Both the position numbers and the translations under genes were made by a program. 64,000 nucleotides of DNA from an uncultured virus (IMG/VR IMGVR_UViG_3300033148_002355) (taxonomy: Duplodnaviria; Heunggongvirae; Uroviricota; Caudoviricetes). Every line of letters begins with the position of its first letter. The stretch's first letter is position 1. The notes under the pieces are model-generated. The model did not search any database, was not told the DNA's origin, and saw nothing but the letters and a program-made list of their open reading frames with translations. The stretch lies in the IMG/VR virus record IMGVR_UViG_3300033148_002355; one strand, written 5' to 3'. This document shows, one piece after another, positions 44,938 through 64,000 of the stretch.

Positions 44938-44946
44938 ATCTGTTGA

Positions 44947-46410: not shown

Positions 46411-46483
46411 AATCTTCTGTGTTTCTGTTTTCAAATATATGTATTACGAGGAGACTTGCAATAAAATTAAGATATCTTAACAA

Positions 46484-46777: not shown

Positions 46778-46802
46778 TTTTCGTTATCTTTTAATTGTTT
46801 GA

Positions 46803-47510: not shown

Positions 47511-47512
47511 AA

Positions 47513-48744: not shown

Positions 48745-49148
48745 ATCCCTATCATTTTAAGTACTTGTTTCAATTCGCTTTTGTTTTTGATAGTGCCGTT
48801 AAACAAACAAGCTAATTGCCCTATCTGATTTGACTTGAACACTCTCAATATATTCTCTGAGGTGTGTAGCATAGTGTACTCTTCTTTTATATAAAAAGTA
48901 AACAATTCTTCTCCATCGTCAGACTGTCCAAAACATCCTTCAGGTTTTAATCCCCACCCCAAACTCTCAATATCCTCACGGTCTAGGTGTTTGACTCTGA
49001 CAGTATCTTCTAAAGAAAGAATAGATTGGTCTTTAGAGAAAGTTTCTTTTAACCATTCTCCATCTAAACCTTCAATCCCCCAAAGAGCTTCATACTCAAA
49101 CCCAACGTGGAACTCCGAATTTTCGGGCGTATAATATTTACTTTCCAT
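48741..49148 (-). CDS. Hypothetical protein (MESKYYTP...EFHVGFEYE)
   Basis: ATG at 49148 within the track ORF. Confidence 0.7.
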   Translation of the reverse strand: MESKYYTPENSEFHVGFEYEALWGIEGLDGEWLKETFSKDQSILSLEDTVRVKHLDREDIESLGWGLKPEGCFGQSDDGEELFTFYIKEEYTMLHTSENILRVFKSNQIGQLACLFNGTIKNKSELKQVLKMIGI

Positions 49149-49150
49149 AA

Positions 49151-49333
49151 TCAATCTACTTTTACAATTTTACCTGTTACTTTACCGTTTTCATATATCT
49201 TAAATATCGCGGGAGTATCATCAGGAATATGTTCAAACTTTTTATCAAACACTTCTTCAGCGTCTTCTTTTTTCATAAAGACGTACCTGGGATAACTACC
49301 CTTACCCATTGCTTTAATTAAACTATCAAACAT
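49151..49333 (-). CDS. Hypothetical protein
   Basis: 60 aa; coupled to the clamp gene. Confidence 0.55.
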   Translation of the reverse strand: MFDSLIKAMGKGSYPRYVFMKKEDAEEVFDKKFEHIPDDTPAIFKIYENGKVTGKIVKVD

Positions 49334-50505
49334 TACATCATAGGCATTAATATAAACTCCTTTTCCTCTACTACTTCACCTTCGACATTATTAGTGTAAC
49401 TGAAAAACAAAGGTTTATTACTTTCCTTATCTCTTCCTATATGGCAGTTTAGAAACTCTGTATTACAACATTGTAAAACACTTTGTAAATACAATGCGTT
49501 AATCCTTACATTAATATCTTCTTTCAACTCCCCGCCTTTAGTTTCATCACTGATTATATCATTAATTTCATCACTGGACCCTAAGTAACTTTCAGACGCT
49601 ACTTCAATACCTTTCAGTCCTGATTTAACCGTTAACGTTAATATCCTACCTCCCGCTTCCTCTACAGCACTTAAGTTACAAACCCTATCTACACTGTCCA
49701 TTAACTCCTTTGGGCTCACTACGAAGTACCCTAACTCCTTTTGATCAAATATCCTATCTACATCAGGGAATTTAATATCAGTAAATAAATCACAAATAAA
49801 CATTGTGCTTTTATTTTTAATAATAATCACATCTTTATCTACGTGTAAGTTAAATGGTCCTTCAAGTTCTACATTAAAGAAACTAGCTATCAGTTGTTTT
49901 TGAATCATTATATCAAACTCTATATCAAATGAGTTGGTAATGTTTTTCATCTCCATTTTAGCTCCATGTGCTGTGCTTAGTGCTTTAATGAATAAACTAT
50001 CCTTTTCTAACTTAAGTGACAAACATGTTAACGCGGGCCTAGTATCATTAGCTTGGATAAAAGAGAGGCTATCTTTTACACTATCAAATATTTTATTATT
50101 AGTTAATGTAGCAAACTGTTCAATCTTTCTAAACTTAGTATCTGGAAATCCATCTTCAGGAACTCCTTCAATTTTCATGTTGCCCTTTTTAGTTTTGATG
50201 TGTAAGGTAACACCTCCAGCCTCCTTTTCTTTAACTCTTAATATAAGGTCTTCTGATTTTATTGACCTAATAGCTCTTAGTAATAAGTCGCAAGGAATAA
50301 GGCATCTAAAGCCGTCTACTGACTCTGCATTCTTAGCTACTGATATTACCTCAGTATTAAGAGAAGTAGTCCTTAAATGAAGGTTATTACCTTTTCCTTC
50401 GATAAGAACATTGTCAATAATAGGTAGTGTTGATTTCTTAGCGACTATTGTACTGCAAGGAATCAATGCTTTAAGTACTGCTATTCTGTTTACTGTGATC
50501 TTCAT
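49333..50505 (-). CDS. dnaN: DNA polymerase III beta sliding clamp homologue
   Basis: MKITVNR...KSTLPIIDNVLI, DTRPALT, FPDVDRI, INALYL and C-terminal ILMPM; 390 aa. Confidence 0.85.
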   Translation of the reverse strand: MKITVNRIAVLKALIPCSTIVAKKSTLPIIDNVLIEGKGNNLHLRTTSLNTEVISVAKNAESVDGFRCLIPCDLLLRAIRSIKSEDLILRVKEKEAGGVTLHIKTKKGNMKIEGVPEDGFPDTKFRKIEQFATLTNNKIFDSVKDSLSFIQANDTRPALTCLSLKLEKDSLFIKALSTAHGAKMEMKNITNSFDIEFDIMIQKQLIASFFNVELEGPFNLHVDKDVIIIKNKSTMFICDLFTDIKFPDVDRIFDQKELGYFVVSPKELMDSVDRVCNLSAVEEAGGRILTLTVKSGLKGIEVASESYLGSSDEINDIISDETKGGELKEDINVRINALYLQSVLQCCNTEFLNCHIGRDKESNKPLFFSYTNNVEGEVVEEKEFILMPMM

Positions 50506-51536
50506 TTCTTTTTCTTTTTTAGTTTTATGTTTTTAAATATGTGTGCTATTACATCTATGGTCCATCCGTTACCTAGCATTTTATATAGTTGTGAGTCAGA
50601 AACTCCGCAGGACAACATAATGTCTATTATGTGCTCTGGTATAGTTTGAAGGCGGGCGCACTCTAAAGGGGTTAATCTCCTTACCCCTTTATCGTTTTTA
50701 ATATAAGGGTCAGTTTTACCGCACTTAGCGTACCTAGCTGTAAGGCAGTAACTTTTTTTCGAGTCTTTATCGTGAGGTTTAAACCGGCCTTTAAAAGCCG
50801 GACTACCGTGAGTAAGCCCGTTTATAAGTTTTTCAGATAAATAGTATTTTTCATCTATTATAACTAAATTATCCTTACCTACAGTAGTTAAACAATTACT
50901 CTTACTATCTTTTCTAACCTCTATACGTTGCTCGGTTTTGCCTGCCATACTATCTACGGTATGGTCTGCTCTTTTACCATCTACAATATAGCGCCCTCTT
51001 TGCGCCCCTATCTTCTCACTCCCGTCCTCCAAAATATCCTTTAACAAAACACCCTTATCTTCCGGTTGTCCTATTCCTGGTATATTAGTCCAGTATAACC
51101 TAACCCTGTTTTGAGCAGAGACTAACGAGCTGTTTATCATTATAGGCTCTACACCCATGTATTTAGATATAATATCTTGACTCTCCTTTTTCATCCTTAC
51201 GTTTTCAAGTAAGAAGTATTTAGGTTGTAATTCCTCTTTAAGTCTAACGAACTCAAAGAATAACTTACTACGTGGATCTTCAAAGTTTAACTGTTTACCT
51301 GCAAATGAGAACCCTTGACAAGGACTGCCTCCTATTAGTAAATCTATATCAGGTAAACCAAAGAAGGTTACGTTCCTAACGTCTCCCAATCTTTTAATGT
51401 TTGGATAAATAGCTTTAGACACTTGCATAGCGTACTTATCTATTTCACTAGCGTAGTAATTATCTACTTTTATCCCCGCCTTTTCTAAAGCCATCATGCC
51501 GCAACTCTTTCCGTCGAATAGTGAAACTACATTCAT
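50502..51536 (-). CDS. DNA (cytosine-5) methyltransferase
   Basis: SLFDG, EID, GGSPCQGFS, LLENV, QNRVRLYW and KMLGNGW motifs; ATG at 51536. Confidence 0.92.
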   Translation of the reverse strand: MNVVSLFDGKSCGMMALEKAGIKVDNYYASEIDKYAMQVSKAIYPNIKRLGDVRNVTFFGLPDIDLLIGGSPCQGFSFAGKQLNFEDPRSKLFFEFVRLKEELQPKYFLLENVRMKKESQDIISKYMGVEPIMINSSLVSAQNRVRLYWTNIPGIGQPEDKGVLLKDILEDGSEKIGAQRGRYIVDGKRADHTVDSMAGKTEQRIEVRKDSKSNCLTTVGKDNLVIIDEKYYLSEKLINGLTHGSPAFKGRFKPHDKDSKKSYCLTARYAKCGKTDPYIKNDKGVRRLTPLECARLQTIPEHIIDIMLSCGVSDSQLYKMLGNGWTIDVIAHIFKNIKLKKKKK

Positions 51537-51537
51537 A

Positions 51538-52308
51538 TCAATATTTAATTTCAGTTTTAATAATTTCAATAGTGTCTTTAGGAAAATCATCTGCTTTACT
51601 AATTACCCATAAAGCATAATCCCTATCATCATACACAGGTTTACCTCTATTTTTACCAAAGTTGTAACATATATTTTCTTTGTCATCTTTGATTAGTTTA
51701 CCTGTACTATCGAAATGGTTGTTCTTATCTCTTAGTTCATCAAAGTAAAAATCTATAATACCTTCAACAGTGTCAGGAATATCTTCTTGCTTAATCATTT
51801 CATCAAGGAGTATCTTAGTTGCTTTAGCGTCGTTGTAAGCATCGTGACTGCCTACTAACTCTTTCCCGGTGTATCTTTGATACATAGCTCCTAACTTCCT
51901 ACTATATATCTTATTAACTAATTTCATCACATCTAAGGTCATTGTTTCTGGTTCCTTATGGAAGTGGCAGTTAGCTTCGTACATCTCTCGTCTAAGCAAA
52001 GGTAAATCGAACCTATCAATGTTGTACCCGCAAACTATGTGAGTACTGATAGCTGCTTTGATAGTAGATGCTACCATATTGAACTTAGGTTCATCTTTAA
52101 CCATTTCATCTGTGATACCGTGTATTTCTGTAGCTTCGGGAGGAATAGGCATACCGGGGTTTACTAACCATGTCCTCTTATCTATTTTCCCGTTAGGCCG
52201 TACACGTATAGCAGCGACTTGAACTATCTTATCAGTTGATATGTTAACTCCAGTAGTTTCTAAGTCGAGCCAAACTAACGTGTTGTTTTCTTGGTTGAAT
52301 TTGTTCAT
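51538..52308 (-). CDS. DEDDh 3'-5' exonuclease (Pol III epsilon-like)
   Basis: DLETTG, GYNIDRFD, HDAYND and C-terminal NFGKNRG. Confidence 0.9.
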   Translation of the reverse strand: MNKFNQENNTLVWLDLETTGVNISTDKIVQVAAIRVRPNGKIDKRTWLVNPGMPIPPEATEIHGITDEMVKDEPKFNMVASTIKAAISTHIVCGYNIDRFDLPLLRREMYEANCHFHKEPETMTLDVMKLVNKIYSRKLGAMYQRYTGKELVGSHDAYNDAKATKILLDEMIKQEDIPDTVEGIIDFYFDELRDKNNHFDSTGKLIKDDKENICYNFGKNRGKPVYDDRDYALWVISKADDFPKDTIEIIKTEIKY

Positions 52309-52309
52309 A

Positions 52310-52765
52310 TTACTTAATTAGCATTACTGTTCCTTTTTTATCTATTTTGATGTTGTGACTTTTAAAGTGTTTATTGAATAACGCTTTAGATTGAGTGTTA
52401 AGCTTTTTCTTAGCTGCATCAAAGTCTTTATACTTCTCAGGGTTTTTAAGATACTCATCATTCCCTTCCGCTGGATAAACTACATCTTTGATAAGTTTAT
52501 CCCTAAGCACTTTTAATTTAGCATCGTATGCATCTTTTACTGATTTAGGAATAACTCCATACCTGTACGCTAATTTAATATCTGGAGTAATATACTCTTT
52601 GTGTAACCGTTTGACTTGTGCGTAAGTTTCATTATCAACTGTTCCTTTTTTAAGGAAGTCACTGTATAGTTTTTCAACTATAAGAGGAGCGTCTTGAGCT
52701 TCTAAGTCAACTGATATTTCTCCCTTTTTCTTTTCCGCTTTTAACGGTTTCTTTTTCTTTGCCAT
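52310..52765 (-). CDS. Hypothetical basic protein
   Basis: 151-aa ORF. Confidence 0.7.
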   Translation of the reverse strand: MAKKKKPLKAEKKKGEISVDLEAQDAPLIVEKLYSDFLKKGTVDNETYAQVKRLHKEYITPDIKLAYRYGVIPKSVKDAYDAKLKVLRDKLIKDVVYPAEGNDEYLKNPEKYKDFDAAKKKLNTQSKALFNKHFKSHNIKIDKKGTVMLIK

Positions 52766-52791
52766 TGTTTATTTATTTATTTAGTTATTAG

Positions 52792-53238
52792 TTAAAATCT
52801 TAAATCTTCATTTCCTCCTCCCATAGTCCTATAAATCAAATTATCTATATGTTCACTATGAGTTGACTTCTTATTTGTACCTGTATCAATTAACGTTTGA
52901 TTCCCTTGAGTTACTAAAGGTATCCTATGTCCTCCTTCTCCGTATATCGTTCCATCTATTATATCTTCACATACCAACTTAGTTATCTTTTCAAATACAT
53001 CGTTCAATCCGTTCATTTTAGATGTTACTAAAACATATATTATAATCTCACTTAACAACTCTGAAGCTTTGACTATATTTCTGTCTTGGTTAAAGTATAT
53101 ATAATTTTCAATAAGGTCCTCCATCTTCTCTCGAAACTCTTGTAATTTAACATCATTTAAGATAACTGGTTTTCTAGGTATTTCATGATTACCTAATATC
53201 TCTGCTATTGTCCTGATTTTTTTATCTAATGACTTCAT
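52792..53238 (-). CDS. Hypothetical protein (possible degenerate MazG-like fold)
   Basis: 148 aa, helical; weak resemblance only. Confidence 0.55.
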   Translation of the reverse strand: MKSLDKKIRTIAEILGNHEIPRKPVILNDVKLQEFREKMEDLIENYIYFNQDRNIVKASELLSEIIIYVLVTSKMNGLNDVFEKITKLVCEDIIDGTIYGEGGHRIPLVTQGNQTLIDTGTNKKSTHSEHIDNLIYRTMGGGNEDLRF

Positions 53239-55049
53239 ACTTTTTGAAATCTACTGGTTATACTTTCTTTGATATTGTTCTTCTTCTCGTAATCTTGTAT
53301 AAGCGACTTGAATAGTTTCTTCTCCAGGTTCCCATATTCTACTATCCCTGCTTTCTTGTGATCTATAGCTGAGTTAATATCATCTGTTTTACTTTCAATA
53401 AGGTTATATATCCTCTGGTCAATACTATCTGGTATCATTGTATACATTACCTCTACATCTTTAGTTTGCCCCATTCTGTGAGCCCTTTTATATGGTTGCT
53501 CTAATAAATCGGGGGTGAATCCCATATCCATAAACACTACCTTACGAGCATTAACTAAGTTAATACCAATACCTGCAGCTATAACTTGACCTAAGAACAC
53601 TTGTACCTCTGTACGTTGCTTAAACTTATCAATACGGTTCCTTCTTTTAAGACTACTAACACTTCCATCAATAAGAACAGCTGTATTACCTAACTCATCT
53701 TTTAATTGATTAAGTACAGTTTTAAAGAAACTGAACACTATAACCTTTTCTCCTTCCCTGTTAAGCTTTCTGATTAACTTGAGGACATCAGGTATTTTAG
53801 ATTCACTACAAAGCCTGTTAAGAGTCATTATGTTACCTCTACTCTTCATTGAAGCTTTCCTTTTAGTACTCCTCAAGTAAACTAATCTCTCTGTGTTTCT
53901 AGTACCTGTCCCTATTTTGTTTTTAATCCTATGTTCTACTTCTTTAATTTCAGCAGTTACCTCTGCAAGTAGCTTCTGAGCGTCATACATCTCTTTTATA
54001 GCCTCTTGGTACTTCTTTGTACTCTTATCATTCATTTCGAAGTAGTAGCTCTTAATAACGAGCTTAGGTAAGTCTAACTCTTCTTCTGATTTCTTTCTAA
54101 GCATCCAGTTGGATAACTTTAATCTAAAGTCTTCTACATTCTTAATACCTGTAACTTTTTGACCGTTCCCTTTAGCGTACCTTCTTTTGAAGTCTGTAAA
54201 GTTTTTACCCATTGGGTGTTTGCTTAAGTGTAGTAAAGCGAATATATCAGTTATTCTGTTCTTGATAGGTGTGCCTGTTAAGAAGGTAACTCTTGCTTTA
54301 GGATACTTGTTCAAAAGCTTCCTAACTTGCTTGAACTTATCTGTACCCTTATTTTTTATATAATGAGCTTCATCTATGATAATGTGATCGATTGGGGACT
54401 TGGTTATATGCTTGATGTACTTCTCTACACTTTCATAGTTAACTATTACAAATGACTCTTTCATTACACTGAACATGCATTTATTCCTGTCAAGCAAAGT
54501 AAAGAATAAAGGGTTAAATCCCCACTCTTCTGTAAGGTCTGTATACCAGTTCCATTTAGTTAATGAAGGGCAAATGATTACTGTACGTTTTAAGTTGAAT
54601 AGTTTAGTAAGTGAAGCAGCGAATAGTGTTTTACCTAATCCTTGTTCAAATGCACATAAGTTGAATTGTCTATTTCTGAAGGACCATAAAGCAGCAGCTT
54701 GATACTTCATTAGTTTCTTTGGATCACCTTCCTTGTCAAATAGTCCTTCGTATAAAGTCGCGGGAGAATACTTAGCTACAAATTCTTTAGCATCTTTTAA
54801 GTATATCCTTTTAATAAGATCAACAAATACTTTCTTCTTATCTACATTGAACTTATTGTCCATTAAGTTACGATCAACGTACTTAACGTATTTAAGTAAT
54901 GCTTCTTTACACGTTATACGAATATCTACAACTACCTTTCCTTTGTCTTTGACAGTCATATCAAGACATTCAGCCGTTAACAGCTCCTCGTCTGAGAAGT
55001 GTTTTTGGAACAAGAGCCTCTTGTCGTCTTTACTTAACGTTATCTTCAT
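53235..55049 (-). CDS. SNF2-family helicase/annealase
   Basis: FEQGLGKT, IIDEAH, LTGTPIKN, GIGINL and KRAHRMGQ. Confidence 0.9.
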   Translation of the reverse strand: MKITLSKDDKRLLFQKHFSDEELLTAECLDMTVKDKGKVVVDIRITCKEALLKYVKYVDRNLMDNKFNVDKKKVFVDLIKRIYLKDAKEFVAKYSPATLYEGLFDKEGDPKKLMKYQAAALWSFRNRQFNLCAFEQGLGKTLFAASLTKLFNLKRTVIICPSLTKWNWYTDLTEEWGFNPLFFTLLDRNKCMFSVMKESFVIVNYESVEKYIKHITKSPIDHIIIDEAHYIKNKGTDKFKQVRKLLNKYPKARVTFLTGTPIKNRITDIFALLHLSKHPMGKNFTDFKRRYAKGNGQKVTGIKNVEDFRLKLSNWMLRKKSEEELDLPKLVIKSYYFEMNDKSTKKYQEAIKEMYDAQKLLAEVTAEIKEVEHRIKNKIGTGTRNTERLVYLRSTKRKASMKSRGNIMTLNRLCSESKIPDVLKLIRKLNREGEKVIVFSFFKTVLNQLKDELGNTAVLIDGSVSSLKRRNRIDKFKQRTEVQVFLGQVIAAGIGINLVNARKVVFMDMGFTPDLLEQPYKRAHRMGQTKDVEVMYTMIPDSIDQRIYNLIESKTDDINSAIDHKKAGIVEYGNLEKKLFKSLIQDYEKKNNIKESITSRFQKV

Positions 55050-55071
55050 TTCTGTTTTCTGTTGTCTTAAT

Positions 55072-55129
55072 GGTTAACTAATTTTAAAAACAATTTCGTT
55101 CCTCAACAATTTTTACTATTGCGTTATAA
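55072..55129. repeat. attC-like site (short, degenerate)
   Basis: GGTTAAC...TAAAAA...TTTTTAC-TATTGC-GTTATAA; right end matches ATTGCGTTA at the window start. Confidence 0.5.
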
Positions 55130-55384
55130 AACATCTGTTTGTTTACTCCTTTCAAAACCGTCACAACCTAAGCATTGTGATTCACACCTAACCCCTCCAA
55201 CTTCTTCATTAGAGCAAACAAACGATTTCATAACATCAGGTATATTTAAATTTTTCAACTCTGTCCATGCGTGAGCATAAGCTTGTGATTTTCCATCACT
55301 TCTGCCTTTTTGGTATTCACTACTATCATCCCTTGGTGTATTAGCACCTTTTTTAAATACTTCTAAAATTTCGTTAATATTCAT
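55124..55384 (-). CDS. Hypothetical protein translated through an attC-like arm
   Basis: 86 aa; KNLNIPDVMKS is encoded by the site arm; the stop lies in the GTTA core. Confidence 0.7.
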   Translation of the reverse strand: MNINEILEVFKKGANTPRDDSSEYQKGRSDGKSQAYAHAWTELKNLNIPDVMKSFVCSNEEVGGVRCESQCLGCDGFERSKQTDVL

Positions 55385-55433
55385 CTGTGTAAATTTATTC
55401 GTTAAAAATCAAAACATACCTGCAACATTACCT
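55228..55433. repeat. attC-like site with mutated core (ATT instead of GTT)
   Basis: TCATAAC-AT-CAGGTATATTTAAATTTTTCAAC ... GTTAAAAATCAAAACATACCTG-CAAC-ATTACCT. Confidence 0.75.
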
Positions 55434-55455
55434 ACAAGTGCTAAGTCGGTAGGTA

Positions 55456-56034
55456 CTAATAATGTTTCTTCTTAAATTCTTCTGCCATTATATCCTGCAT
55501 ATTACCTTTGTAATATCGTGCTGTTTCAGGGTTACTAATTTCATATATCCCTGAACCCATGTTTGGTATGATTAATCCACAAGTAAGAAAATCAAAACAT
55601 AAAGCTATGTTTTCTTCTCGTATTAAAAACTCTTCTTTAGTTAACCTAAGCATTTCATCTACGTTATCGCACATTTGAATATACTCATCATATTTTTCGG
55701 TTATGGCTTCCAATTTCTCAGAGGTAATACATTCTTTAATGTCAGGATATTTTTTGATAGCTTCTATTGTTTTGACCCAATAACTACCTATGCGCTCTCT
55801 ATCTCTATTTAGTCTATCCATTTCATAAGCCATAAAATGCTTATCGTCCTCCATTTGTTGTTTAAATCTTAGTGCAGGTGTGTCAGTTTCAAACGAAACA
55901 AACTCATTATTCACTATCCAATTTTTATCATCAATCTTTGTGATGTTATTTTTATATTCGCTTTTACTACTTAATGTTTTTGAGAAGCTCCATCCCATTA
56001 AGCCAAATAATCCTATCATCAATATTATTTCCAT
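55456..56034 (-). CDS. Membrane-anchored hypothetical protein (cassette gene)
   Basis: 192 aa with N-terminal TM; bounded by ATTACCTAC (55427) and GTAGGTAAC (56069-56077). Confidence 0.7.
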   Translation of the reverse strand: MEIILMIGLFGLMGWSFSKTLSSKSEYKNNITKIDDKNWIVNNEFVSFETDTPALRFKQQMEDDKHFMAYEMDRLNRDRERIGSYWVKTIEAIKKYPDIKECITSEKLEAITEKYDEYIQMCDNVDEMLRLTKEEFLIREENIALCFDFLTCGLIIPNMGSGIYEISNPETARYYKGNMQDIMAEEFKKKHY

Positions 56035-56070
56035 TTTCTTAATTTAATCAGTTTATAAATCCGCACCAGT

Positions 56071-56135
56071 AGGTAACACTATCTATATGCAAAACTCCGT
56101 TGCACTACGTTCAGCACATAGCCAAACCGTTAACT
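56071..56135. repeat. attC-like site (short, 65 bp)
   Basis: AGGTAAC-ACTAT-CTATATGCAAAAC ... GTTCAGCACATAG-CCAAACC-GTTAACT; shares CACATAGCCAAACCGTTA with site 1. Confidence 0.8.
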
Positions 56136-56358
56136 ACTTCTCTATAATCTCAATCAAAGTAAGTGTGTCAGGATCGCATAACATGGCTAATGGCTGACCT
56201 TTAATATGCACTTGCATTTTACCGTTAACCATATCTTTATTGTGATGTGTTATTCCTACTTTACCAGTGTAGGTTTTTACTTTGAATCCGGTACTACCAA
56301 CTCTAAAGTTGTGATCTAAGTACCAAGCGTTTGGATTTGTCTCTTCTGTTATTTTCAT
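56134..56358 (-). CDS. Hypothetical protein
   Basis: 74-aa ORF ending at the site core. Confidence 0.65.
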   Translation of the reverse strand: MKITEETNPNAWYLDHNFRVGSTGFKVKTYTGKVGITHHNKDMVNGKMQVHIKGQPLAMLCDPDTLTLIEIIEK

Positions 56359-56371
56359 AATATTTGTGAAT

Positions 56372-57814
56372 CTAATTATTTATAAACGCTTCTGCAAACC
56401 GAACCTCAGCATCCCCGTTCGCATTCCAATCTACCATCTCTATAAATAACTGATACCCTTTCTTTTCTATGAACTTTAATACTTTACTAAAAGTTTCTTT
56501 ATCGAATAAACTACCATCTTTAATGAATATACATTTAAGGTTAGGATTCATAGCAATTGCTAGTTGTACTCCTACTCTGATAATAACACTGCTAGGATGA
56601 TGGTCCCCGTTAAAAGGTAATCCTTCAAAGTAAACTCCTTCTTCATCAAATGATAATCCTTTAACTGGTAAGGTACTCGTTTCAAAAGACTTTTGCTTTT
56701 CTAATACGATAGCTTTTAAACGTTTGGTTAACTTGTTAGCTTTAGCTTCTTGTTTAGTCACCTCAGCGTGTTTAGTAACTACATCTTGGATTTTAGTATA
56801 CATCGCTGTGTATTGTACTAGTTCAGTTTGTTTATCTCTTAGCTTATCTACGTCAGGTTCTTCATTCTTTTCAATCCAAGCTTTTACTTTAACTATCTGT
56901 TCTGCTGAAGCTTTACCTCTGACCTGAATAAGGTCATGATCATGCATCCTGTTTTTAAGGTCCAGAAGAAACCTCTCATTGTCTTCTCCTAAGGCTTTAG
57001 CTTTATCTAAAACGATTCTATAATACTTAGTTAACTCCCTTGATTTGTCGCCTTCTAAAATACCTGTTTGATGTTCAGTTAATGCTGTTCTTGCCTTGTT
57101 ATACTTGACAACACCGTCAACCATATTCAAAAGCTTATTATTAACCTCTGTGAGCTCTTTACTCTTGTCTTCAGTATACTTCTTTACATCCTCTTCTTTA
57201 ATGTCTGTAGCACTGCTTAAATTAGCTTTTAAGGTTTTGATGGTTCTGTTAAGTTCAGTTCTTTCATCACGTTTTTCCTTATTCTCATTATCCAAATCTT
57301 CAAGTAATTGTTTTTCATCATCTGTTAAAAATTGTCTTAATACTTCTACTTGTTCTTTTAAACCTGCTTGACTTACTTTACCACTACTTGTTAAACCTAA
57401 CCTTATAAACTCATCAACATCGAAACTAACGTCTCCTATGATGTCACGTTGCATTGATTTAGTTTTAATCTTGTTACCTTCTTCATCTACTACTGTAACA
57501 CTCCCTTTTTGATTGCTTTCAGTAAAGTTCATTATGTATTGGAAAGTCTTTTGTTCTCCATCTAAGTCACCTTTGATAACTAGTTTAACGTGTGCTGACT
57601 CTTCTCCTTTTTTGATTGCTTTAGAAGGGACTGCTTCGCTATTTATCGGGGATTGTATAGCTCTAAGAACAGTAGATTTACTACCCCCGTTCTTTCCTAC
57701 TACAACTATACTCTTTCCTTGTATATCAATTACCTTACTAGATAATGATTGAAAGTTCTTTAACTCTGCTGAAATGATTTTCATTCCTGTCTCTTTTCTG
57801 TTTAACTCGCTCAT
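56372..57814 (-). CDS. SMC/RecF-like AAA ATPase with coiled coil
   Basis: ELKNFQSL, Walker A variant GKNGGSKST, central coiled coil, IFIKDGSLFD and QLFIE. Confidence 0.8.
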   Translation of the reverse strand: MSELNRKETGMKIISAELKNFQSLSSKVIDIQGKSIVVVGKNGGSKSTVLRAIQSPINSEAVPSKAIKKGEESAHVKLVIKGDLDGEQKTFQYIMNFTESNQKGSVTVVDEEGNKIKTKSMQRDIIGDVSFDVDEFIRLGLTSSGKVSQAGLKEQVEVLRQFLTDDEKQLLEDLDNENKEKRDERTELNRTIKTLKANLSSATDIKEEDVKKYTEDKSKELTEVNNKLLNMVDGVVKYNKARTALTEHQTGILEGDKSRELTKYYRIVLDKAKALGEDNERFLLDLKNRMHDHDLIQVRGKASAEQIVKVKAWIEKNEEPDVDKLRDKQTELVQYTAMYTKIQDVVTKHAEVTKQEAKANKLTKRLKAIVLEKQKSFETSTLPVKGLSFDEEGVYFEGLPFNGDHHPSSVIIRVGVQLAIAMNPNLKCIFIKDGSLFDKETFSKVLKFIEKKGYQLFIEMVDWNANGDAEVRFAEAFINN

Positions 57815-57829
57815 TTGTCTGTTTGCTTT

Positions 57830-58024
57830 TTAGTTTTTGTTTTTTATATATACTACTGCTTTACCTTTTATTGCTAAATCGTATATCATTTTCCTTTGAT
57901 AGTCACGTAGGTTTAAAGGATGCCTGAATCCGTCTTCACTGAGTACGCAGGTGTATTTCTGTACAAAGTAAAGAAGATCATTTTGACACTTATCTAACTC
58001 TTCGTTTAGTTCTTGTTCTGTCAT
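57830..58024 (-). CDS. Small protein resembling a terminase N-terminal fragment
   Basis: ELDKCQNDLLYFVQKY...PLNLRDYQRKMI resembles the N-terminus of T4-like TerL. Confidence 0.5.
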   Translation of the reverse strand: MTEQELNEELDKCQNDLLYFVQKYTCVLSEDGFRHPLNLRDYQRKMIYDLAIKGKAVVYIKNKN

Positions 58025-58377
58025 GATTTAGTTTTAAATACTTCATCCCAAGTTTTAGGATACTTTTGATTTAATATTTGTTTCTTCAACTCTTTCTCTG
58101 CTTGTGACATCTTGGCTCCAGTAGCTCCTATTGATCTTGGTTTGTAAACTAAGTTTTTGAAACTTTTAACCCAACCCATATAATCTTCCCACTCTCTTAT
58201 GTTAAGGTTCCAAACCTTCTCAATATACAATCCGGACATCTTACCATCTAATCCAAACTCACCATAACCGCAACGAGTCATCCCTATCTCTTTCATTTCA
58301 ATAAGGCGCTTTCTGGTTCTGTCGTTATTTAGAGTAGAGCTGTAATAGGTTTTGTCTTCTATATTTATTTCACTCAT
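58021..58377 (-). CDS. Hypothetical protein
   Basis: 118 aa; coupled. Confidence 0.65.
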   Translation of the reverse strand: MSEINIEDKTYYSSTLNNDRTRKRLIEMKEIGMTRCGYGEFGLDGKMSGLYIEKVWNLNIREWEDYMGWVKSFKNLVYKPRSIGATGAKMSQAEKELKKQILNQKYPKTWDEVFKTKS

Positions 58378-58565
58378 TTATCTTTTATTTTTCCTGTTTT
58401 ACATTTTGTCATATCAAGAGTTACGAATCTAAGATTACCTTGCTTAGCTTCTTCTTTTAAACACTTAATGTAGTTATCTTGAATCTCTTTCGCTGTGGGA
58501 TTGATAGTGTACTCTTTAGTAACTAACTTCTCTCCGTCGTGGTATGCAATAGTCCCTTTGCTCAT
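58374..58565 (-). CDS. Hypothetical protein
   Basis: 63 aa; coupled. Confidence 0.6.
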   Translation of the reverse strand: MSKGTIAYHDGEKLVTKEYTINPTAKEIQDNYIKCLKEEAKQGNLRFVTLDMTKCKTGKIKDK

Positions 58566-58567
58566 AT

Positions 58568-59614
58568 TTACTTCTTTTTACTTTTTTCTACAAACTCTTC
58601 CCTATCCTTTTTTTGTTTACAAAACTTAGCAACACTACAATAAAACTTACACTTAAACCCTACATCTATTCTAAACTCTATTTTAGGGTTAGTTAACTTA
58701 GCTTTGTTATCTTCTATATACTGTTCGGCACTTGCTTTACTGTAACATATTTTAGCAGCATTCTTCCTAGTTTCAGACATGACAGCAAAAGCATCTGGTT
58801 TAGCCCATCTTTCTGTATAAGAACATAATGGTAACTTTTTCCTTTGACTTGCTTCGTAGTGTAACTTAACACGTTGCTTAATATACTCTTCACATTCTTC
58901 CGGGGACCAAACTCTTAACTCTATAATTTTAAACACTGAGTCAGGGTATTTATTAGCTTTCTTATTAGGGTTCATAATGTAGTTCATCTTACCCCAGTTT
59001 CTGAACATAGCAAGTATTTCAATCTTCTCCACTTCACAACCAATAGCTCTTAACATGTGAGCGTATATGTTTTGTTGACGTTCCCAATCTATATGTTCGT
59101 CTTCACCATACTTATTAACATTACATACTTTATAATCTCTTAACAGTTTTTCGGGAGCATTATAATAATCTTGAGTACCACTAACTCGGTAAGTGTATTC
59201 TTTATCATCAACTTCGCTTACCTGGGTAATATCTAATGTTAAAGTTCTTTCAGAAAATATAGTCTTACCTACTTGTTCATCAGGGAATCCTTTCTTAGCT
59301 GCTAAACCTATTTGTTTTGCCAAATCGGGGAGACCCATCCTTTTCAAAGCAGCGTGAGCAAACTTTAACGTTTCATAATCTCTATGAGTATAAGTAGCAC
59401 TTTCCATCAAACTATGAAACGCTGTACCTAACATCATAAACACATGATCGTTAACATCTTCTTCCACTTCGTTAGCATCCTTTAACATACGTACTCTAGG
59501 AGACCCTATTAAAGTAGTTACTGATATATCACCTTTAGTAACGTGATCGTCGAAACAAGCAGCTTTGTATAGTTCTGCAGGTGCTCCGTATTTGTTTGTT
59601 ATTTTAACGCTCAT
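58568..59614 (-). CDS. PD-(D/E)xK Cas4-like exonuclease
   Basis: ISVTTLI, GTAFH, GTQD...RDYK, QQNIY and C-terminal CKFYCSVAKFC; ATG at 59614. Confidence 0.8.
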   Translation of the reverse strand: MSVKITNKYGAPAELYKAACFDDHVTKGDISVTTLIGSPRVRMLKDANEVEEDVNDHVFMMLGTAFHSLMESATYTHRDYETLKFAHAALKRMGLPDLAKQIGLAAKKGFPDEQVGKTIFSERTLTLDITQVSEVDDKEYTYRVSGTQDYYNAPEKLLRDYKVCNVNKYGEDEHIDWERQQNIYAHMLRAIGCEVEKIEILAMFRNWGKMNYIMNPNKKANKYPDSVFKIIELRVWSPEECEEYIKQRVKLHYEASQRKKLPLCSYTERWAKPDAFAVMSETRKNAAKICYSKASAEQYIEDNKAKLTNPKIEFRIDVGFKCKFYCSVAKFCKQKKDREEFVEKSKKK

Positions 59615-59640
59615 AGTGTTGTATTTAATACTTTTAAAAT

Positions 59641-59678
59641 AAAAACCCCTTGTCAACTTTGACATAAAACAAGGGGCT
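59641..59678 (-). terminator. Hairpin/terminator in the leader of the nuclease gene
   Basis: AAAAA-CCCCTTG...CAAGGGG; second hairpin CTCTCA-CTTAGGA-TGAGAG at ~59695-59713. Confidence 0.5.
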
Positions 59679-59759
59679 TCCCTCTTTTTAAGAACTCTCA
59701 CTTAGGATGAGAGGTAAGAACGATCTTTAATATCTTATTGTTAATAATCTAAATGTACT

Positions 59760-60272
59760 TTATACTTTCTTAAACTCCCGTTTTTTAAGATAATTTAACT
59801 TCATTAATTTATAGTCGTCAGCATCTGGAACTTCCACTCCGTATATCATTTCCACATGACTTACTATATCGTTGATAAAATCTATCAACCTCCCCTTTGT
59901 CATATCTCTTTGACTCAGTAATACAAATACATCACTACCGTCATTATCGGGGATTACATCCTTTGCAAACATCATCTTCATAGCTATCATACACTCGACC
60001 TTATCTAATACCTCTCCTTGGTCCCTTTTAACTTTCATGACAAAAGGTATCAGTACACCATTTAAGTAGTTGTACATCCTTCTTTTGCCTTCTATAGATG
60101 TAGTTTCTTCTATTGTAATAGTAAGTTCCTCCCCGCGTTTTTGAAATAGGAATGAAGTTAATGATCTTACATCTGTCAAACGTATGAGCATATCTCTTAA
60201 TGAAGAGTCTCTTTTAAATGTTACGTTGGTTATTATTTTGTCCATTTGTTTAATTCTATCGGGGTGTATCAA
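59760..60272 (-). CDS. NinB/Orf-like recombination protein (tentative)
   Basis: MYNYLNGVLIP...MKMMFA...SQRDMTKGRLIDFINDI...GVEVPD pattern. Confidence 0.5.
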   Translation of the reverse strand: MIHPDRIKQMDKIITNVTFKRDSSLRDMLIRLTDVRSLTSFLFQKRGEELTITIEETTSIEGKRRMYNYLNGVLIPFVMKVKRDQGEVLDKVECMIAMKMMFAKDVIPDNDGSDVFVLLSQRDMTKGRLIDFINDIVSHVEMIYGVEVPDADDYKLMKLNYLKKREFKKV

Positions 60273-60652
60273 AAAGGTATAATCATAAGCCTACCTCCAG
60301 CTCTTTGACACCATAAATCTAAAGCTCCACAACTAATGTTTACTATTCCTCTTTCTGCTTGTGCATAATAACTTCTATTAGTACCTACTAACAAAGCCAT
60401 TTCGGTTTGCGTTAAGTTTAAGTTGCTCCTTAAATACTTAAGCATCTTTCCTCTTGATAATCGTTGAGGTTTGTTTTCATATTCAAGTATAGCTTTCTTA
60501 TTCCTTGGTGTCTTAGGTCTTTTTTCTATTATTCTTTCTCTAGCTTCTTTTTCATCTGTTTCTGAAAAAGCAGCCCTAATATGTAAGTCTCTTTCTTCAG
60601 CTTCTGAAAGCGGTTGGTTTCCTGTTCTTGCTTTTTCTATTTTTCTTGGCAT
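60269..60652 (-). CDS. XRE-family HTH transcriptional regulator
   Basis: LKYLRSNLNLTQTEMALLVGTNRSYYAQAERG. Confidence 0.85.
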   Translation of the reverse strand: MPRKIEKARTGNQPLSEAEERDLHIRAAFSETDEKEARERIIEKRPKTPRNKKAILEYENKPQRLSRGKMLKYLRSNLNLTQTEMALLVGTNRSYYAQAERGIVNISCGALDLWCQRAGGRLMIIPF

Positions 60653-60684
60653 TGTGTTTTTATTTATTTGCGGGGAGAATTAAA

Positions 60685-61167
60685 CTACCCTTGGTTAAAA
60701 TACTTGTTTACATCATTATCTATTACTTCCTTACAACAATTAACTAAACTAACATACTGAGCAAATCGTCCATAATCTTTACCTAACACATGAACAATAC
60801 TAAACAACTCCTTACGATACTTAATAATACCTTTAGCAATTTTCCTGTACTCTCTCTCTTGCACATTACTATCAGTAACCTTTTCTTTCATCTTTACCAT
60901 CTTCTCTAATACACGATATAAGTTGTTAAGCACTTCTTTATCACTTAATAGTTTTACTTCGTCTATTCGCTTGTAAATAGAGCAAATAAATGTACTTAAA
61001 TTTCCTACTAGGTCAGTTAGTACTAAATACTTCACCTCCTGAGTTACTTGTCTTTTATTCCCTTGTATTTTGATGGTAGGATGTGTATTGTCTCTGCCAT
61101 GTATAATCAAGTAAAAGTATAACGTGTGTATGTTGTCTTTGGTTGTTTGGTGTACTGTGGTTATCAC
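60685..61167 (-). CDS. Hypothetical protein
   Basis: 160-aa ORF, GTG start. Confidence 0.6.
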   Translation of the reverse strand: MITTVHQTTKDNIHTLYFYLIIHGRDNTHPTIKIQGNKRQVTQEVKYLVLTDLVGNLSTFICSIYKRIDEVKLLSDKEVLNNLYRVLEKMVKMKEKVTDSNVQEREYRKIAKGIIKYRKELFSIVHVLGKDYGRFAQYVSLVNCCKEVIDNDVNKYFNQG

Positions 61168-61252
61168 TCTTTTTTATTTTTAAGTTGTTTCTTTAGATTT
61201 CTTATCATTAAAAAAAGTACTATTATAATCATTACTGGCGGTATGTATATCA

Positions 61253-61507
61253 TCATTTTTGATCTTTTAAAGTTTGAGCGCACCAATTAAGCGAGTGCAT
61301 TTCCGCTTCGAGTATATCTATTTTATTCTTTAACCCTACATCATGCATTACATTTCTACTTGACTCTCTCTCTTTCGTAACTGCTTTCCATGTCTTCTCA
61401 GCCTCTTTAAACTGTTTTGTATACTTCTTTATCACTTGAACTTTTAAACAAGCTAACGACTCTTTAATGTCTTCGGGTGTTATTGTTTTGTAAGTGTTTT
61501 TGGTCAT
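61253..61507 (-). CDS. Hypothetical protein
   Basis: 84-aa ORF. Confidence 0.65.
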   Translation of the reverse strand: MTKNTYKTITPEDIKESLACLKVQVIKKYTKQFKEAEKTWKAVTKERESSRNVMHDVGLKNKIDILEAEMHSLNWCAQTLKDQK

Positions 61508-61643
61508 AGTTTATATTTATTTGTGAATAGAGCAATAGCCTTTTTTTTAAGGTTTACTCTGGTTTATAATTTACTTGATATAATAATCAAAGCTATTATA
61601 CTAACAAAGATTATCCATGCTATAATAAAATCATTCTCTTTGT

Positions 61644-61838
61644 TCATACTTTTTCAATTGTTAATCCTTCGTGCTTATCTCTTAACTCTTTTACCTCTGT
61701 ACTATTATACCTTCTCGCTAGTGCGGGTCTATCTGTTAACTCTGGTGTGTTGTTAACTATGTACCATACAAATAGCCTCCCTTTTTTTAGTATATGGGAT
61801 TTCGCGTATGTTTGTCTAGGGAATTTTGATCCTTTCAT
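61644..61838 (-). CDS. Hypothetical protein
   Basis: 64-aa ORF. Confidence 0.6.
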   Translation of the reverse strand: MKGSKFPRQTYAKSHILKKGRLFVWYIVNNTPELTDRPALARRYNSTEVKELRDKHEGLTIEKV

Positions 61839-61866
61839 AATTTGCGGGGTTTTAGTTTTTAGTGGT

Positions 61867-62070
61867 TTATATTATGTTAATTTTTACTGAATAATAGCTG
61901 CCGTTATTTAAAAAATCTTTCCAATCGCTTTCAGTGTTATACTCACACTCTTCAAATTCGTCTTTACTCATTTCTGAAGTCCTAAATTTTGAAAAAATCT
62001 TACCACCTACATATTTTCTAATTGTAAATGTTCTTTTTGATTTATTTGCTGTTGCTCTTAAAGTTTTCAT
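61867..62070 (-). CDS. Hypothetical protein
   Basis: 67-aa ORF. Confidence 0.65.
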   Translation of the reverse strand: MKTLRATANKSKRTFTIRKYVGGKIFSKFRTSEMSKDEFEECEYNTESDWKDFLNNGSYYSVKINII

Positions 62071-62115
62071 TTGATTTTGTTTTAGTGGTTTTTATTTTTG
62101 CGGGGTTTATTTTTA

Positions 62116-62283
62116 TTAAATATATAATTCTTTACCTTTCAAGTCTTCAACTGTGTCTCCTTGGCTAGATCCTAAGTACGTATAGTGTTGTTCGTCTGTA
62201 CAACATTCGCAGTTAATAGGTATCCAAATTTGTAAACCTTGTTTAAAAAACTGTTGTGCTTGTGTTAATGTTATTTTTGTCAT
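62116..62283 (-). CDS. Small hypothetical protein (55 aa, MTKITLTQAQ...; not in track)
   Basis: Hand-translated ORF with an A-rich leader. Confidence 0.6.
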   Translation of the reverse strand: MTKITLTQAQQFFKQGLQIWIPINCECCTDEQHYTYLGSSQGDTVEDLKGKELYI

Positions 62284-62303
62284 TTTTTTTGTTTTTATTA
62301 GAT

Positions 62304-62364
62304 TAATAACGGAGATGTAAAACGCAACTCCTTACAGTCGCAGACGTTTACACGGTCGTTGTGC
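62304..62364. repeat. attC-like site (short)
   Basis: TAATAAC-GGAGA-TGTAAAACG ... CGTTTACA-CGGTC-GTTGTGC. Confidence 0.65.
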
Positions 62365-62586
62365 TTAATTAGGTAATAGACTAAGCATATTGTCCCAAAC
62401 GCATACACTGTCATACATTCCATTACCTGAGTACGATATTGCTCCTACATTTACAATATCAAACTTTTCACCGTTTGGAATCTCTACTGTTTCGGGTGTT
62501 ATGCTTGTTATTAATACTTTTCTATCGCTTACATTACATAAGTAAATGCAACCTTCTTTTAATTGTGATATTTTTAATGTTTCCAT
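62365..62586 (-). CDS. Hypothetical protein (cassette gene)
   Basis: 73 aa; bounded by GTTGTGCTTA (62358-62367) and TAAGCACAAC (62595-62604). Confidence 0.7.
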   Translation of the reverse strand: METLKISQLKEGCIYLCNVSDRKVLITSITPETVEIPNGEKFDIVNVGAISYSGNGMYDSVCVWDNMLSLLPN

Positions 62587-62597
62587 AATTTAACTAA

Positions 62598-62689
62598 GCA
62601 CAACACTACCTATAAAAGCATAGCGTCGGGCTACTTGGTTTAATAATTAAGCGTATTACTGGCTACGCTTTATAGCCTCAACGTTGTAG
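62598..62689. repeat. attC-like site
   Basis: GCACAAC-ACTAC-CTATAAAAGCATAGC ... GCTACGCTTTATAG-CCTCAAC-GTTGTAG. Confidence 0.8.
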
Positions 62690-62693
62690 TGCA

Positions 62694-62834
62694 TTAGATA
62701 AACTCTATGTTATCAATATGAACGTTTTCTATTTTGTTGTTATGCTCAACTTTAATCATAACAAAATCATTTACTATGATGCTACAAACTTCTGCTATGT
62801 CACATCCCCAAATTACTTTACTTCCTACTATCAT
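62694..62834 (-). CDS. Small cassette gene (46 aa, MIVGSKVIWG...; not in track)
   Basis: Hand-translated; bounded by GTTGTAGTGC (62683) and GCACTACAAC (62864-62873). Confidence 0.65.
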   Translation of the reverse strand: MIVGSKVIWGCDIAEVCSIIVNDFVMIKVEHNNKIENVHIDNIEFI

Positions 62835-62866
62835 TTTATTTTGTTTTTTAGTTATTAATTAACGCA

Positions 62867-62922
62867 CTACAACAATTTGTATAGTACATACTTCGTACAG
62901 CCCCATACAAGGGGCGTTATTT
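62867..62922. repeat. attC-like site (short, 56 bp)
   Basis: CTACAAC-AAT-TTGTAT ... ATACAA-GGGGC-GTTATTT. Confidence 0.7.
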
Positions 62923-62937
62923 TTTATTTAGCGGGGA

Positions 62938-63414
62938 TTAATATCTTACTCCTGTTTCTAAAAAATCATATTCATTAACTTCTAAACTTTCCTTAATACA
63001 TTCATCACTCATTAAGTATTCATACTCTTTTTGTAGCATATTAATATACTGTAACCCTATACTATCTTTAAACATCCTGATAGTACCTTCTTTTTGCTCT
63101 AAACCTTTCATTACTCTCTCTCTCACTTGTTTCTCAAAACATTTAGCAGTGATATACGTTTGACATTCTTTCCCGTGCTCTGTCAATATTGTATTAACAA
63201 TTTCATCAATAGGCTTATTTAGTACTATTTCAATCTCTCGCCTGTCAATGTCAAAACTTTTAATTGTTGCACCTATATTCTCCATATCATCATAGATGCA
63301 ATTCCACCACTCGCAGTATTCTACGTTAAAATATCTGTTATCTTCAATTGCTTTCTCTTGTGCTTCCTTGCTTAGTTCCTTGAACTTGTAAAGGTTTAAT
63401 TTGATTGTTTTCAT
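62938..63414 (-). CDS. Hypothetical early protein (MKTIKLNLYKFKELSKEAQEKAIE...NEYDFLETG)
   Basis: 158 aa, acidic; pattern common among small early phage proteins. Confidence 0.75.
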   Translation of the reverse strand: MKTIKLNLYKFKELSKEAQEKAIEDNRYFNVEYCEWWNCIYDDMENIGATIKSFDIDRREIEIVLNKPIDEIVNTILTEHGKECQTYITAKCFEKQVRERVMKGLEQKEGTIRMFKDSIGLQYINMLQKEYEYLMSDECIKESLEVNEYDFLETGVRY

Positions 63415-63645
63415 AGCTTCTATTGATTTTTATTTGTAGTTATGTGTATTTATTGGTTTTTAAAATTCTCCTACTGTTACATTAACTGTTATCTCTTCGC
63501 CTTCCTCCGTGCAACTAGTCCAAGTAAAAACAACTTGTTCGCTGTTCGCTCCTATTCCTTGTTTCATGTATTCAAGGTCGCTTTGTGTAAAGTTTAATTT
63601 GATTGTTTTCATAGCTTCTATTGATTTTTATTTGTGGTTATGTGT
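63394..63645. repeat. 54-bp direct repeat (63394-63447 and 63592-63645)
   Basis: GTTTAATTTGATTGTTTTCATAGCTTCTATTGATTTTTATTTGT[A/G]GTTATGTGT; one mismatch. Confidence 0.9.
63460..63612 (-). CDS. Small hypothetical protein (50 aa, MKTIKLNFTQ...; not in track)
   Basis: Hand-translated; shares its start region with the downstream gene. Confidence 0.65.
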   Translation of the reverse strand: MKTIKLNFTQSDLEYMKQGIGANSEQVVFTWTSCTEEGEEITVNVTVGEF

Positions 63646-63695
63646 GTTTGTATACTTGTATGTAAAAAAAGTGCTTAGAGTCCTTTAAAATAAGT

Positions 63696-63845
63696 TTATA
63701 GTATTTTGTTTAGTTCTTCTATTTCTTCTGCAATGTATTGTATTTTAACTATGCTATCCTTTCGGGGTGCCTGTGTTGTTTCTACATTTGCATTAATAGC
63801 GTTTAAAAGTTCTTTTACTCTCTCTCTTAACTGGTCGTTTTTCAT
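63696..63845 (-). CDS. Small hypothetical protein (49 aa, MKNDQLRERV...; not in track)
   Basis: Hand-translated ORF. Confidence 0.55.
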   Translation of the reverse strand: MKNDQLRERVKELLNAINANVETTQAPRKDSIVKIQYIAEEIEELNKIL

Positions 63846-64000
63846 TGGATTATGTTTTTAATTAATATTGTTTTAATTCGTGGGTATGCGTTTAAATCTC
63901 CTTCGCTGTACTCAATGACTTTCACCGTGTCACCGTTAACGCTTAATATTCTATACTTGTCGCCTGTGGTGGTGGTTATAATTTGCCCGTTGTTTATCAT
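63842..64000 (-). CDS. Small hypothetical protein (MINNGQIITT...; may extend beyond the window)
   Basis: Hand-translated; ATGA overlap with the next gene. Confidence 0.5.
   Translation of the reverse strand: MINNGQIITTTTGDKYRILSVNGDTVKVIEYSEGDLNAYPRIKTILIKNIIQ

Follow-up and report, generated by a model that had tools for sequence, protein, structure and literature searches.

A probable integron-like array of one-gene cassettes, lacking an integrase, in the early-gene region of a marine crAss-like phage

The stretch of DNA analyzed here (64,000 nucleotides at its full length, hereafter the window) belongs to an uncultured virus of the Caudoviricetes (IMG/VR record IMGVR_UViG_3300033148_002355). 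Pfam matches to crAss_MUZ, CrAss_Ring_2 and a BT4734-like primase among the window proteins identify it as a crAss-like phage. Among the genes on the plus strand (1758-43943) are those for a 2770-aa protein, the terminase, the portal, ring protein 2 and a muzzle protein of crAss type, while the minus strand (44023-64000 and 1-1550) carries replication and recombination genes together with many small open reading frames (ORFs). The metagenome runs that hold this stretch were obtained from marine water, sediment and cold seep in 11 studies, and none of these runs is recorded as RNA. No phage resembling the window was found in INPHARED, which was queried with positions 60000-64000 as DNA and with the portal, ORF73, ORF115 and ORF46 as proteins. 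Integrons are bacterial gene-capture platforms, and the subject of this study is a group of small genes and structured intergenic sites at 62304-62922 that resembles an array of integron cassettes.

Three intergenic sites lie within 620 bp of each other, and from ORF55 to ORF158 every gene of the array region is encoded on the minus strand (Table 1). The original prediction for this locus had described three attC-like sites bounding two one-gene cassettes with self-complementary ends and with stop codons close to the cores. The sequence and the ORF list contain the three sites as well as the two minus-strand ORFs of 73 and 46 aa, and both stop codons (TTA on the plus strand, 62365-67 and 62694-96) fall within the complementary ends, hereafter termed arms. 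All three sites have AAC/GTT cores, although the purine and pyrimidine positions flanking the cores match the RYYYAAC/GTTRRRY consensus in part only. Beyond the cores, pairwise comparison found sites 0, 1 and 2 to be mutually dissimilar.

Table 1. Features of the array region in plus-strand order; a further unit at the start of the window is listed last.
Feature	Position	Strand	Description
ORF55	62116-62283	-	Downstream of site 0 in coding sense; no self-complementary ends
Site 0	62304-62360	-	Intergenic site (~62304-62364); core AAC/GTT at 62308-10/62358-60; attC-like minimum-energy fold on minus strand; remains with left flank when units to the right are replaced
Unit 73	62359-62683	-	R' arm 62358-62371, ORF73 62365-62586, R'' arm 62591-62604, hairpin 1 62605-62682; ends CG before next TT
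Site 1	~62598-62689		Intergenic site between ORF73 and ORF46; core AAC/GTT at 62602-04/62683-85
Unit 46	62684-62916	-	R' arm 62683-62696, ORF46 62694-62834, R'' arm 62860-62873, hairpin 2 62874-62916
Site 2	~62867-62922		Intergenic site between ORF46 and ORF158; core AAC/GTT at 62871-73/62916-18
Backbone junction TTATTTTTTATTTAGCGGGGATTAA	62917-62941	-	Homology to relatives L001 and L003 resumes; ORF158 stop codon 62938-40
ORF158	62938-63414	-	
Third unit, same subfamily	6-174	-	Arms GTTAGCGAGCATTA (6-19)/TAACGCTCGCTAAC (161-174), 13/14 complementary; small ORF between, stop 7-9

The arms around each ORF are 14 nt long and share the format GTT-N7-(A/G)TTA ... TAA(C/T)-N7-AAC. Read on the coding strand, GTT-N7-GTTA precedes the gene and TAAT-N7-AAC lies at or after its stop codon. 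The seven variable letters differ in each unit (GTAGTGC, GTGCTTA and AGCGAGC), yet all 21 of these positions in the three units pair across their genes. The complementarity originally predicted was reproduced for both cassettes: the arms of unit 73, GTTGTGCTTA and TAAGCACAAC, are complementary at 10/10 positions (13/14 over 14 nt), and those of unit 46, GTTGTAGTGCATTA and TAACGCACTACAAC, at 13/14. The single non-Watson-Crick arm position is identical in 3/3 units and reads G.T on the coding strand, A.C on the plus strand. When the inverted repeats of 62000-63100 were ranked, the pair 62358-62380/62582-62604 came first and the pair 62683-62701/62855-62873 third. A complete unit on the coding strand reads 5'-CG, hairpin, GTT-N7-GTTA, small ORF, TAAT-N7-AA-3', and units are joined at a conserved (Y)AA|CG core (CG|TT on the plus strand).

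As a null model for the arms, the downstream flank of each gene was paired with the upstream flank of every other gene, giving 1722 mismatched pairs. Against these pairs the complementarity of the arms was significant for both ORF73 (p=0.009) and ORF46 (p=0.002). Furthermore, all seven N positions were complementary in 3 of the 360 possible motif pairs, each of which encloses one small minus-strand ORF, while by our own estimate ~0.04 fully complementary pairs were expected by chance.

Exchange at these sites was observed in other metagenomes. Logan contigs from four runs (X1, X2, X3 and X7) of four studies were compared over 61200-63700; only joined contigs were counted as evidence of absence, and parts lacking contig cover in X2, X3 and X7 (62376-62795) were not. 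Contigs from two studies, X3 (5757 nt) and X7 (530 nt), join 62360 to 62915 via 228 other letters. In both, site 0 and everything to its left are kept; GTGCTTA, ORF73, hairpin 1, ORF46 and hairpin 2 are gone; and CGTTA and the backbone are kept. The breaks fall at the GTT in site 0 and at the CGTTA that ends site 2. Other contigs match solely 62312-62360 (site 0) or solely 62871-62919 (site 2) and have other sequence on both sides. In the window and in run X3, ORF55 and site 0 are linked, which is not the case in X1 and X7. After 62919/62920, at least three alternative continuations were found. The one seen in X3 and X7 equals window 804-833, where ORF115 has its 3' end, and a site-2-like site therefore abuts the ORF115 gene in those strains. 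ORF115 itself looks like another mobile unit; its homologue (window 801-1148 versus 577-921 in the relative L001, the same phage as the complete genome G001) is inverted relative to the neighboring early genes in G001. Within site 2, small insertions at 62889-62902 vary the middle while the ends are kept.

A second, independent comparison came from another phage. Alignment of the ORF46 homologue clusters yielded an IMG/VR contig of 9895 nt (L018, also handled as L020) with the end of a terminase gene at 3-728; against INPHARED, it had terminase and YopX matches only. Over arm, ORF46 and arm, 180/191 columns (94%) are identical to the minus strand of the window. Hairpin 2 is less conserved (38/53, 72%): TAACGCC and ACTATACAAATT are retained and the middle differs, a small stem there being CCCC/GGGG in the window and CACT/AGTG in L018. 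Identity outside the unit drops to noise (40-45%), with 19/47 columns upstream and 25/55 downstream, and the hairpin 3' of ORF46 is unrelated between the two phages. The common block runs from TAACG, the end of site 2, to CAACG, the core at 62683-85. As the junctions share only TAACG and AACG, transfer was not mediated by extended flanking homology. L018 carries further units, with a TAACG core after ORF92 and with ORF74 flanked by GTTATAAAA and TTTTATAAC, and one of its sites is built like site 0 (AAC, 5 nt, GATAAAAC, a 20-nt loop, GTTTTATC, 6 nt, GTT). Two side observations concern the same contig: a direct repeat of the 5' leader and start of ORF120 (YopX-like by its INPHARED matches) flanks that gene at L020 1974-1996 and 2355-2376, and a 357-nt gap at L020 5251-5607 contains a tRNA-like GGTTCGAACCC box.

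The limits of the block shared with L018 define the mobile unit as hairpin, GTT arm, gene and AAC arm, which agrees with the joint in X3 and X7. These limits also fix the polarity of the unit, with the site lying 5' as seen from the gene. On the plus strand the layout is that of a canonical cassette (TT..., gene, ...AAC, hairpin, ...G), with the gene running antisense to it. Related DNA breaks off at the cassette limits given in the original prediction (62358-62682 and 62683-62915), both in L018 and at the 62360/62915 joint. The exchange boundaries in both comparisons lie within 0-3 nt of G|TT, a range in which the exact phosphodiester bond is not distinguishable. Units thus come, go and pass between unrelated phages, and the breaks fall at the cores. 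Taken together, we interpret this part of the phage's early-gene region as an array of integron-like cassettes that lacks an integrase, with a probability of roughly 0.7. By its sequence organization the array would work like an integron cassette array, its likeness to the canonical attC family being one of layout only. An excised unit would form a circle in which the arms meet as a 14-bp stem closing the hairpin, rebuilding a complete folded site. The reaction might be carried out by a tyrosine recombinase acting on one folded single strand, as in integron attC, the better-folding strand here being the coding strand, and the enzyme could be supplied in trans by the host or a co-infecting phage.

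Not all turnover around the array follows this pattern. In X3, ORF67 (61867-62070; weak GIY-YIG/SegE match, E 0.0018) is missing, the joint falling within a 12-nt direct repeat of the intergenic GCGGGG motif. Likewise, ORF50 (63460-63612), which lies between direct repeats of its upstream region (63393-63451 and 63590-63650), is lost in X2 at joint 63393/63592, where 44 letters are shared, and its homologue in L001 is found on the other side of the ORF158 homologue. Repeat-mediated shuffling therefore operates beside the core-bounded units. An alternative is that the sites are regulatory stem-loops (promoters, terminators or processing signals) repeated between early genes, and that the genes are shuffled by homologous recombination at these linkers between co-infecting phages. 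The losses of ORF67 and ORF50 next door are of this kind, the sequences on either side of sites 0 and 2 vary, and site 0 contains a weak terminator-like hairpin on the coding strand. However, the three sites are unlike one another, unit 46 resides in L018 with just 4-5 shared bases per junction, and shuffling at linkers does not predict that the two ends of each gene complement each other at every variable position. We consider this explanation unlikely, although it is the one that fares best among the alternatives.

Folding of the sites revealed a consistent strand asymmetry. On the minus strand, site 0 folds as AAC, 4 nt, a 9-bp stem with an extra T on the 3' arm, a loop of ~20 nt, 4 nt and GTT; the corresponding plus-strand elements are AAC 62308-10, the stem GTAAAACG/CGTTTAC with one extra base, and the CG|TT core at 62357-60, with two spacers of 6 nt. 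The 13-bp stem of site 1 includes one extra T and one G.T pair, and the spacers of sites 0 and 1 measure 4-7 nt. In both sites the extra base falls on the 3' arm of the minus strand. Non-Watson-Crick combinations occur at six stem positions: each of the three units contributes one, at the same place in its arms, the site 1 stem another, and the long stem 179-193/272-286 two. All six are A.C on the plus strand and G.T on the minus strand. The minus (coding) strand folds slightly better than the plus strand, both in the sites and in the junctions. Canonical attC bottom strands have their extra base on the same arm as sites 0 and 1. The G.T asymmetry, the placement of the extra base and a presumed AA|C cut at the inner end of the closing stem, on its 5' arm, would, by analogy, be properties of a recombinogenic bottom strand, here represented by the coding strand; Bouvier in 2005 and MacDonald in 2006 reportedly described such properties for attC.

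For the integrated sites, minus-strand DNA folds had energies of -4.9 to -5.3 kcal/mol at site 0 (z 0.25), -15.3 kcal/mol at site 1 (z -2.18) and -9.0 kcal/mol at site 2 (z -2.07), and plus-strand folds were slightly worse. The reconstituted circle junctions of both units close with a 14-bp stem. The unit 46 junction reached -15.8 and -16.5 kcal/mol (z ~-5; 0/300 shuffles as low) and the unit 73 junction -16.3 and -16.6 kcal/mol (z -2.3 and -2.75; 8/300 and 4/300 shuffles as low). The expectation that the rebuilt junctions would form attC-type hairpins therefore holds as far as the closing stem is concerned, with the reservation that this stem follows by construction from the complementary ends. 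Similarly, the description of the sites as attC-like fits sites 0 and 1 with respect to cores, spacers and an imperfect stem, and does not fit the several hairpins of site 2, the weak folds of the integrated sites and the opposite sense of the genes.

The same structures could act in the early mRNA, where hairpins and gene-bracketing stems would control processing, stability or translation and travel with the genes as modules. Stems bracketing rRNA precursors for RNase III are a known example of such an arrangement. In favor of this view, only the sense strand would permit G.U pairing at the six non-canonical stem positions, and it is the sense strand that folds better. However, a role in mRNA leaves unexplained why the DNA exchange points coincide with the AAC/GTT cores and why a conserved core is combined with variable arms. 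A search of 61000-64000 against Rfam also returned no match at its thresholds, and at E<=10 gave three chance-level rows for small nucleolar or small RNAs of unrelated families. Structures of the intrinsic-terminator type (GC-rich stem followed by a T run) were found at site 2 only on the antisense (plus) strand, weakly at site 0 on the coding strand, and not at site 1. We judge an explanation by mRNA structure alone to be quite unlikely.

It is also very unlikely that a gene and its two arms constitute a small transposon ending in inverted repeats, or a segment that an invertase flips. The 14-nt inverted repeats do bracket segments of 190-250 bp, a size typical of invertible segments, but the moving unit includes a hairpin outside the arms, no target duplication extends past the AACG core common to both ends, no strand-changing joint was among those listed for the Logan contigs, and the arms differ in each unit. 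Least credible of all is a purely fortuitous origin of the repeats in AT-rich intergenic DNA without function, which could appeal to the background counts given below and to the poor fold of site 0 but would have to accommodate the three fully covarying 14-nt pairs, the per-gene probabilities and two independent comparisons that break at these very points.

Several observations weigh against the interpretation as a mobile cassette array. Inverted repeats are common in the window, with 89 pairs of >=11 nt (<=1 mismatch, 60-900 nt apart), and the arm motifs by themselves are not enriched (GTTN7GTTA, 18 versus 14.3 expected; TAATN7AAC, 20 versus 22.2 expected); the signal therefore lies in the covariation of the arms and in their placement. 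The evidence for mobility comprises two independent comparisons only (X3/X7 and L018), run X1 (0.80 of words) is possibly the very sample from which the window came, and repeats interrupt Logan contigs. Folds of the integrated sites are weak, that of site 0 no better than shuffles, and both site 2 and its L018 copy form two or three small hairpins rather than one imperfect hairpin. Because the closing stem consists of the arms themselves, the junction fold is not independent evidence, and G.T pairs on the sense strand are equally compatible with RNA structure. In contrast to integron cassettes, in which the ORF is followed by attC, the phage hairpin stands 5' of the gene and the coding strand takes the place of the bottom strand. 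No recombinase family was found among the 75 window ORFs (PHROGs, and Pfam on 78 references), the window representing 64,000 of 70,894 bases. Likewise, neither the complete relative G001 nor the L018 contig had a PF00589 match, and no intI, attI or Pc was found in the 64 kb seen.

The distribution of the sites also weighs against this interpretation. Three relatives, L001 (IMG/VR; equivalent to the complete 71.7-kb G001) and the metagenome loci L003 and L004, have ~80% identity in the flanking genes, but between their ORF84 (61253-61507 in the window) and ORF158 homologues they carry other small genes and no such sites. The match to L001 starts again at 62920, the first base past site 2. Exact-pattern scans for sites 0 and 2 gave no match in IMG/VR, and in the GTDB genomes a single 20-mer match in Streptomyces at chance level. 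Loci with ORF158 homologues in other phage groups (L014-L016) had no such arrays.

The cargo genes differ in how widely they occur. ORF46 is, on sequence evidence, a real gene, with 23 homologue clusters at 71-97% identity; a further match, L019, was rejected as spurious, as it lies inside an integrase gene of a GC-rich contig. The predicted structural model of ORF46 (pLDDT 86.6) is a small four-strand beta fold, for which no match was obtained in the PDB at E<=0.001 (best 0.37). For ORF73, two homologues were found at 67-70% identity, no relative was detected in IMG/VR, and the predicted model has low confidence (68.7).

Additional candidate units are present elsewhere in the window. Stop codons lie in or beside an AACG core at 7-144, 536-742, 55124-55384 and 56134-56358, and AACG occurs <=18 nt from the stop codon in 6 of the 42 minus-strand genes, ORF73 and ORF46 included, compared with a background of 5.8% (P=0.03). 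The original prediction had proposed that the pattern recurs at 6-781. This was confirmed only in part, by the arms at 6-19/161-174 (Table 1) and by a 9/9 complementary pair at 524-532/753-761. Further sites ending in CG|TTA beside a stop codon were noted at 55100-55126, 56051-56132, 161-297 and 753-803 and are probably the other arrays of that prediction. Two such sites have an 18-nt end in common (279-296 and 56115-56132). A potential 15-bp stem with two G.T pairs spans 172-296 on the minus strand only. At 293-321, GTTAGAGTGCATTA runs straight into AAACGCACAATAAC, so that arms of the upstream and downstream types stand back to back, paired at 8/10 positions with no gene between them; this may be an emptied unit.

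Other features of the phage and its relatives were recorded alongside the array. The conserved intergenic motif TTTGCGGGG(T/A)TT on the plus strand (CCCCGCAAA on the coding strand) occurs at 61841-61852, 62096-62110 and 62930-62939 and in L001 and L003. Several early genes have it 3-40 nt upstream and others immediately behind them, and it may be a promoter or terminator signal; it is also the 12-nt repeat at which ORF67 is lost in X3. In the complete relative, a divergent non-coding region (G001 15850-16720; L012 8850-9720) contains repeats of ~12-15 nt, GTTTGCTGTGTT, in two inverted clusters. These blocks resemble iterons and possibly represent an origin or an operator array. The only tRNA detected in the window is a tRNA-Gln (anticodon TTG) at 2339-2410. 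A 42-nt tandem repeat at 41605-41801 (4.7 copies, 91% matches) encodes a 14-residue protein repeat within an ORF at 41590-41841.

Compared with integron attC sites and cassettes, the array has much in common. AAC...GTT cores stand at the ends of imperfect hairpin sites of 50-90 nt, exchange points fall at G|TT, and every cassette begins with letters complementary to the inverse core that precedes its own site. The core contains or adjoins the stop codons, a variable center is enclosed by conserved ends, and one strand folds better and carries the extra base. Besides the mirror-image gene order, the differences include a closing stem of 14 bp with a conserved G.T, compared with the canonical 7-bp R box, and phage stems that are AT-rich and weak, site 2 not being a single hairpin. 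Unlike a complete integron, the array has no IntI, attI or Pc in the 64 kb seen.

Modular exchange of phage genes at structured elements has a precedent in T4-type phages, for which Arbiol and coworkers in 2010 reportedly proposed modular shuffling at PeSL elements. PeSLs are direct repeats that recombine by homology. As in that system, small early genes of a lytic phage are exchanged as modules at structured intergenic elements. In contrast to PeSLs, sites 0-2 differ beyond their cores and each unit has private complementary ends; direct repeats flanking the variable gene were seen at the neighboring ORF67 and ORF50.

The closest arrangement in print is that of the clusters of attC sites lacking integron integrases (CALINs) in virulent phages, which have at least two attC-type sites, small cassettes and no integrase and were found in lytic marine phages (Qi et al. 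2023, PMC9892861). That paper describes 17 CALINs in phages, including virulent marine ones and one example in a Polaribacter (Bacteroidota) phage. Sites there were called by IntegronFinder/HattCI, divergent site directions were noted, and 5/6 phage attC sites recombined with IntI1 in vivo. While those sites were thus called by a model and assayed with IntI1, the sites described here are known from their layout and from comparison. In turn, the present data include population evidence of whole-unit exchange and a mirror-image layout, neither of which appears in the part of that paper available to us. In Bacteroidales chromosomes, rAID-1 arrays have a XerD-family recombinase at their head, integron-like intergenic repeats and immunity genes, as far as the available text describes them (Ross et al. 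2019, 10.1101/471110). By that description alone, they differ from the present array in being chromosomal and headed by a XerD-family gene, while no recombinase was found with the phage array. A literature search, judged by titles and the starts of abstracts, found no paper on such arrays in crAss-like phages.

A broader proposal is that crAss-like and other marine Bacteroidota phages share a pool of hairpin-first one-gene cassettes. Such a pool would amount to a mirror-image integron system with a 14-bp clamp stem and a fixed G.T, whose units move between unrelated lytic phages via the folded coding strand, by means of a non-IntI (Xer-type) recombinase that the carrier does not encode. We put this forward tentatively, as its chances appear to be slightly below even.

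In phages, few integrase-less attC clusters have been reported, and evidence of their turnover was not seen for them; here, units are present, absent, replaced and transplanted between unrelated lytic phages. This points to a site-specific route, beside homologous mosaicism, that refreshes the small early genes of lytic phages. It also raises the questions of which enzyme is involved, which strand is used and whether the cassette pools of phages and hosts communicate. That standard attC searches might miss such arrays would be explained by their mirror-image layout and long clamp stem. If a shared pool of hairpin-first cassettes does exist, integron-style gene capture would renew the early accessory genes of these phages, which probably serve in host takeover or anti-defense.

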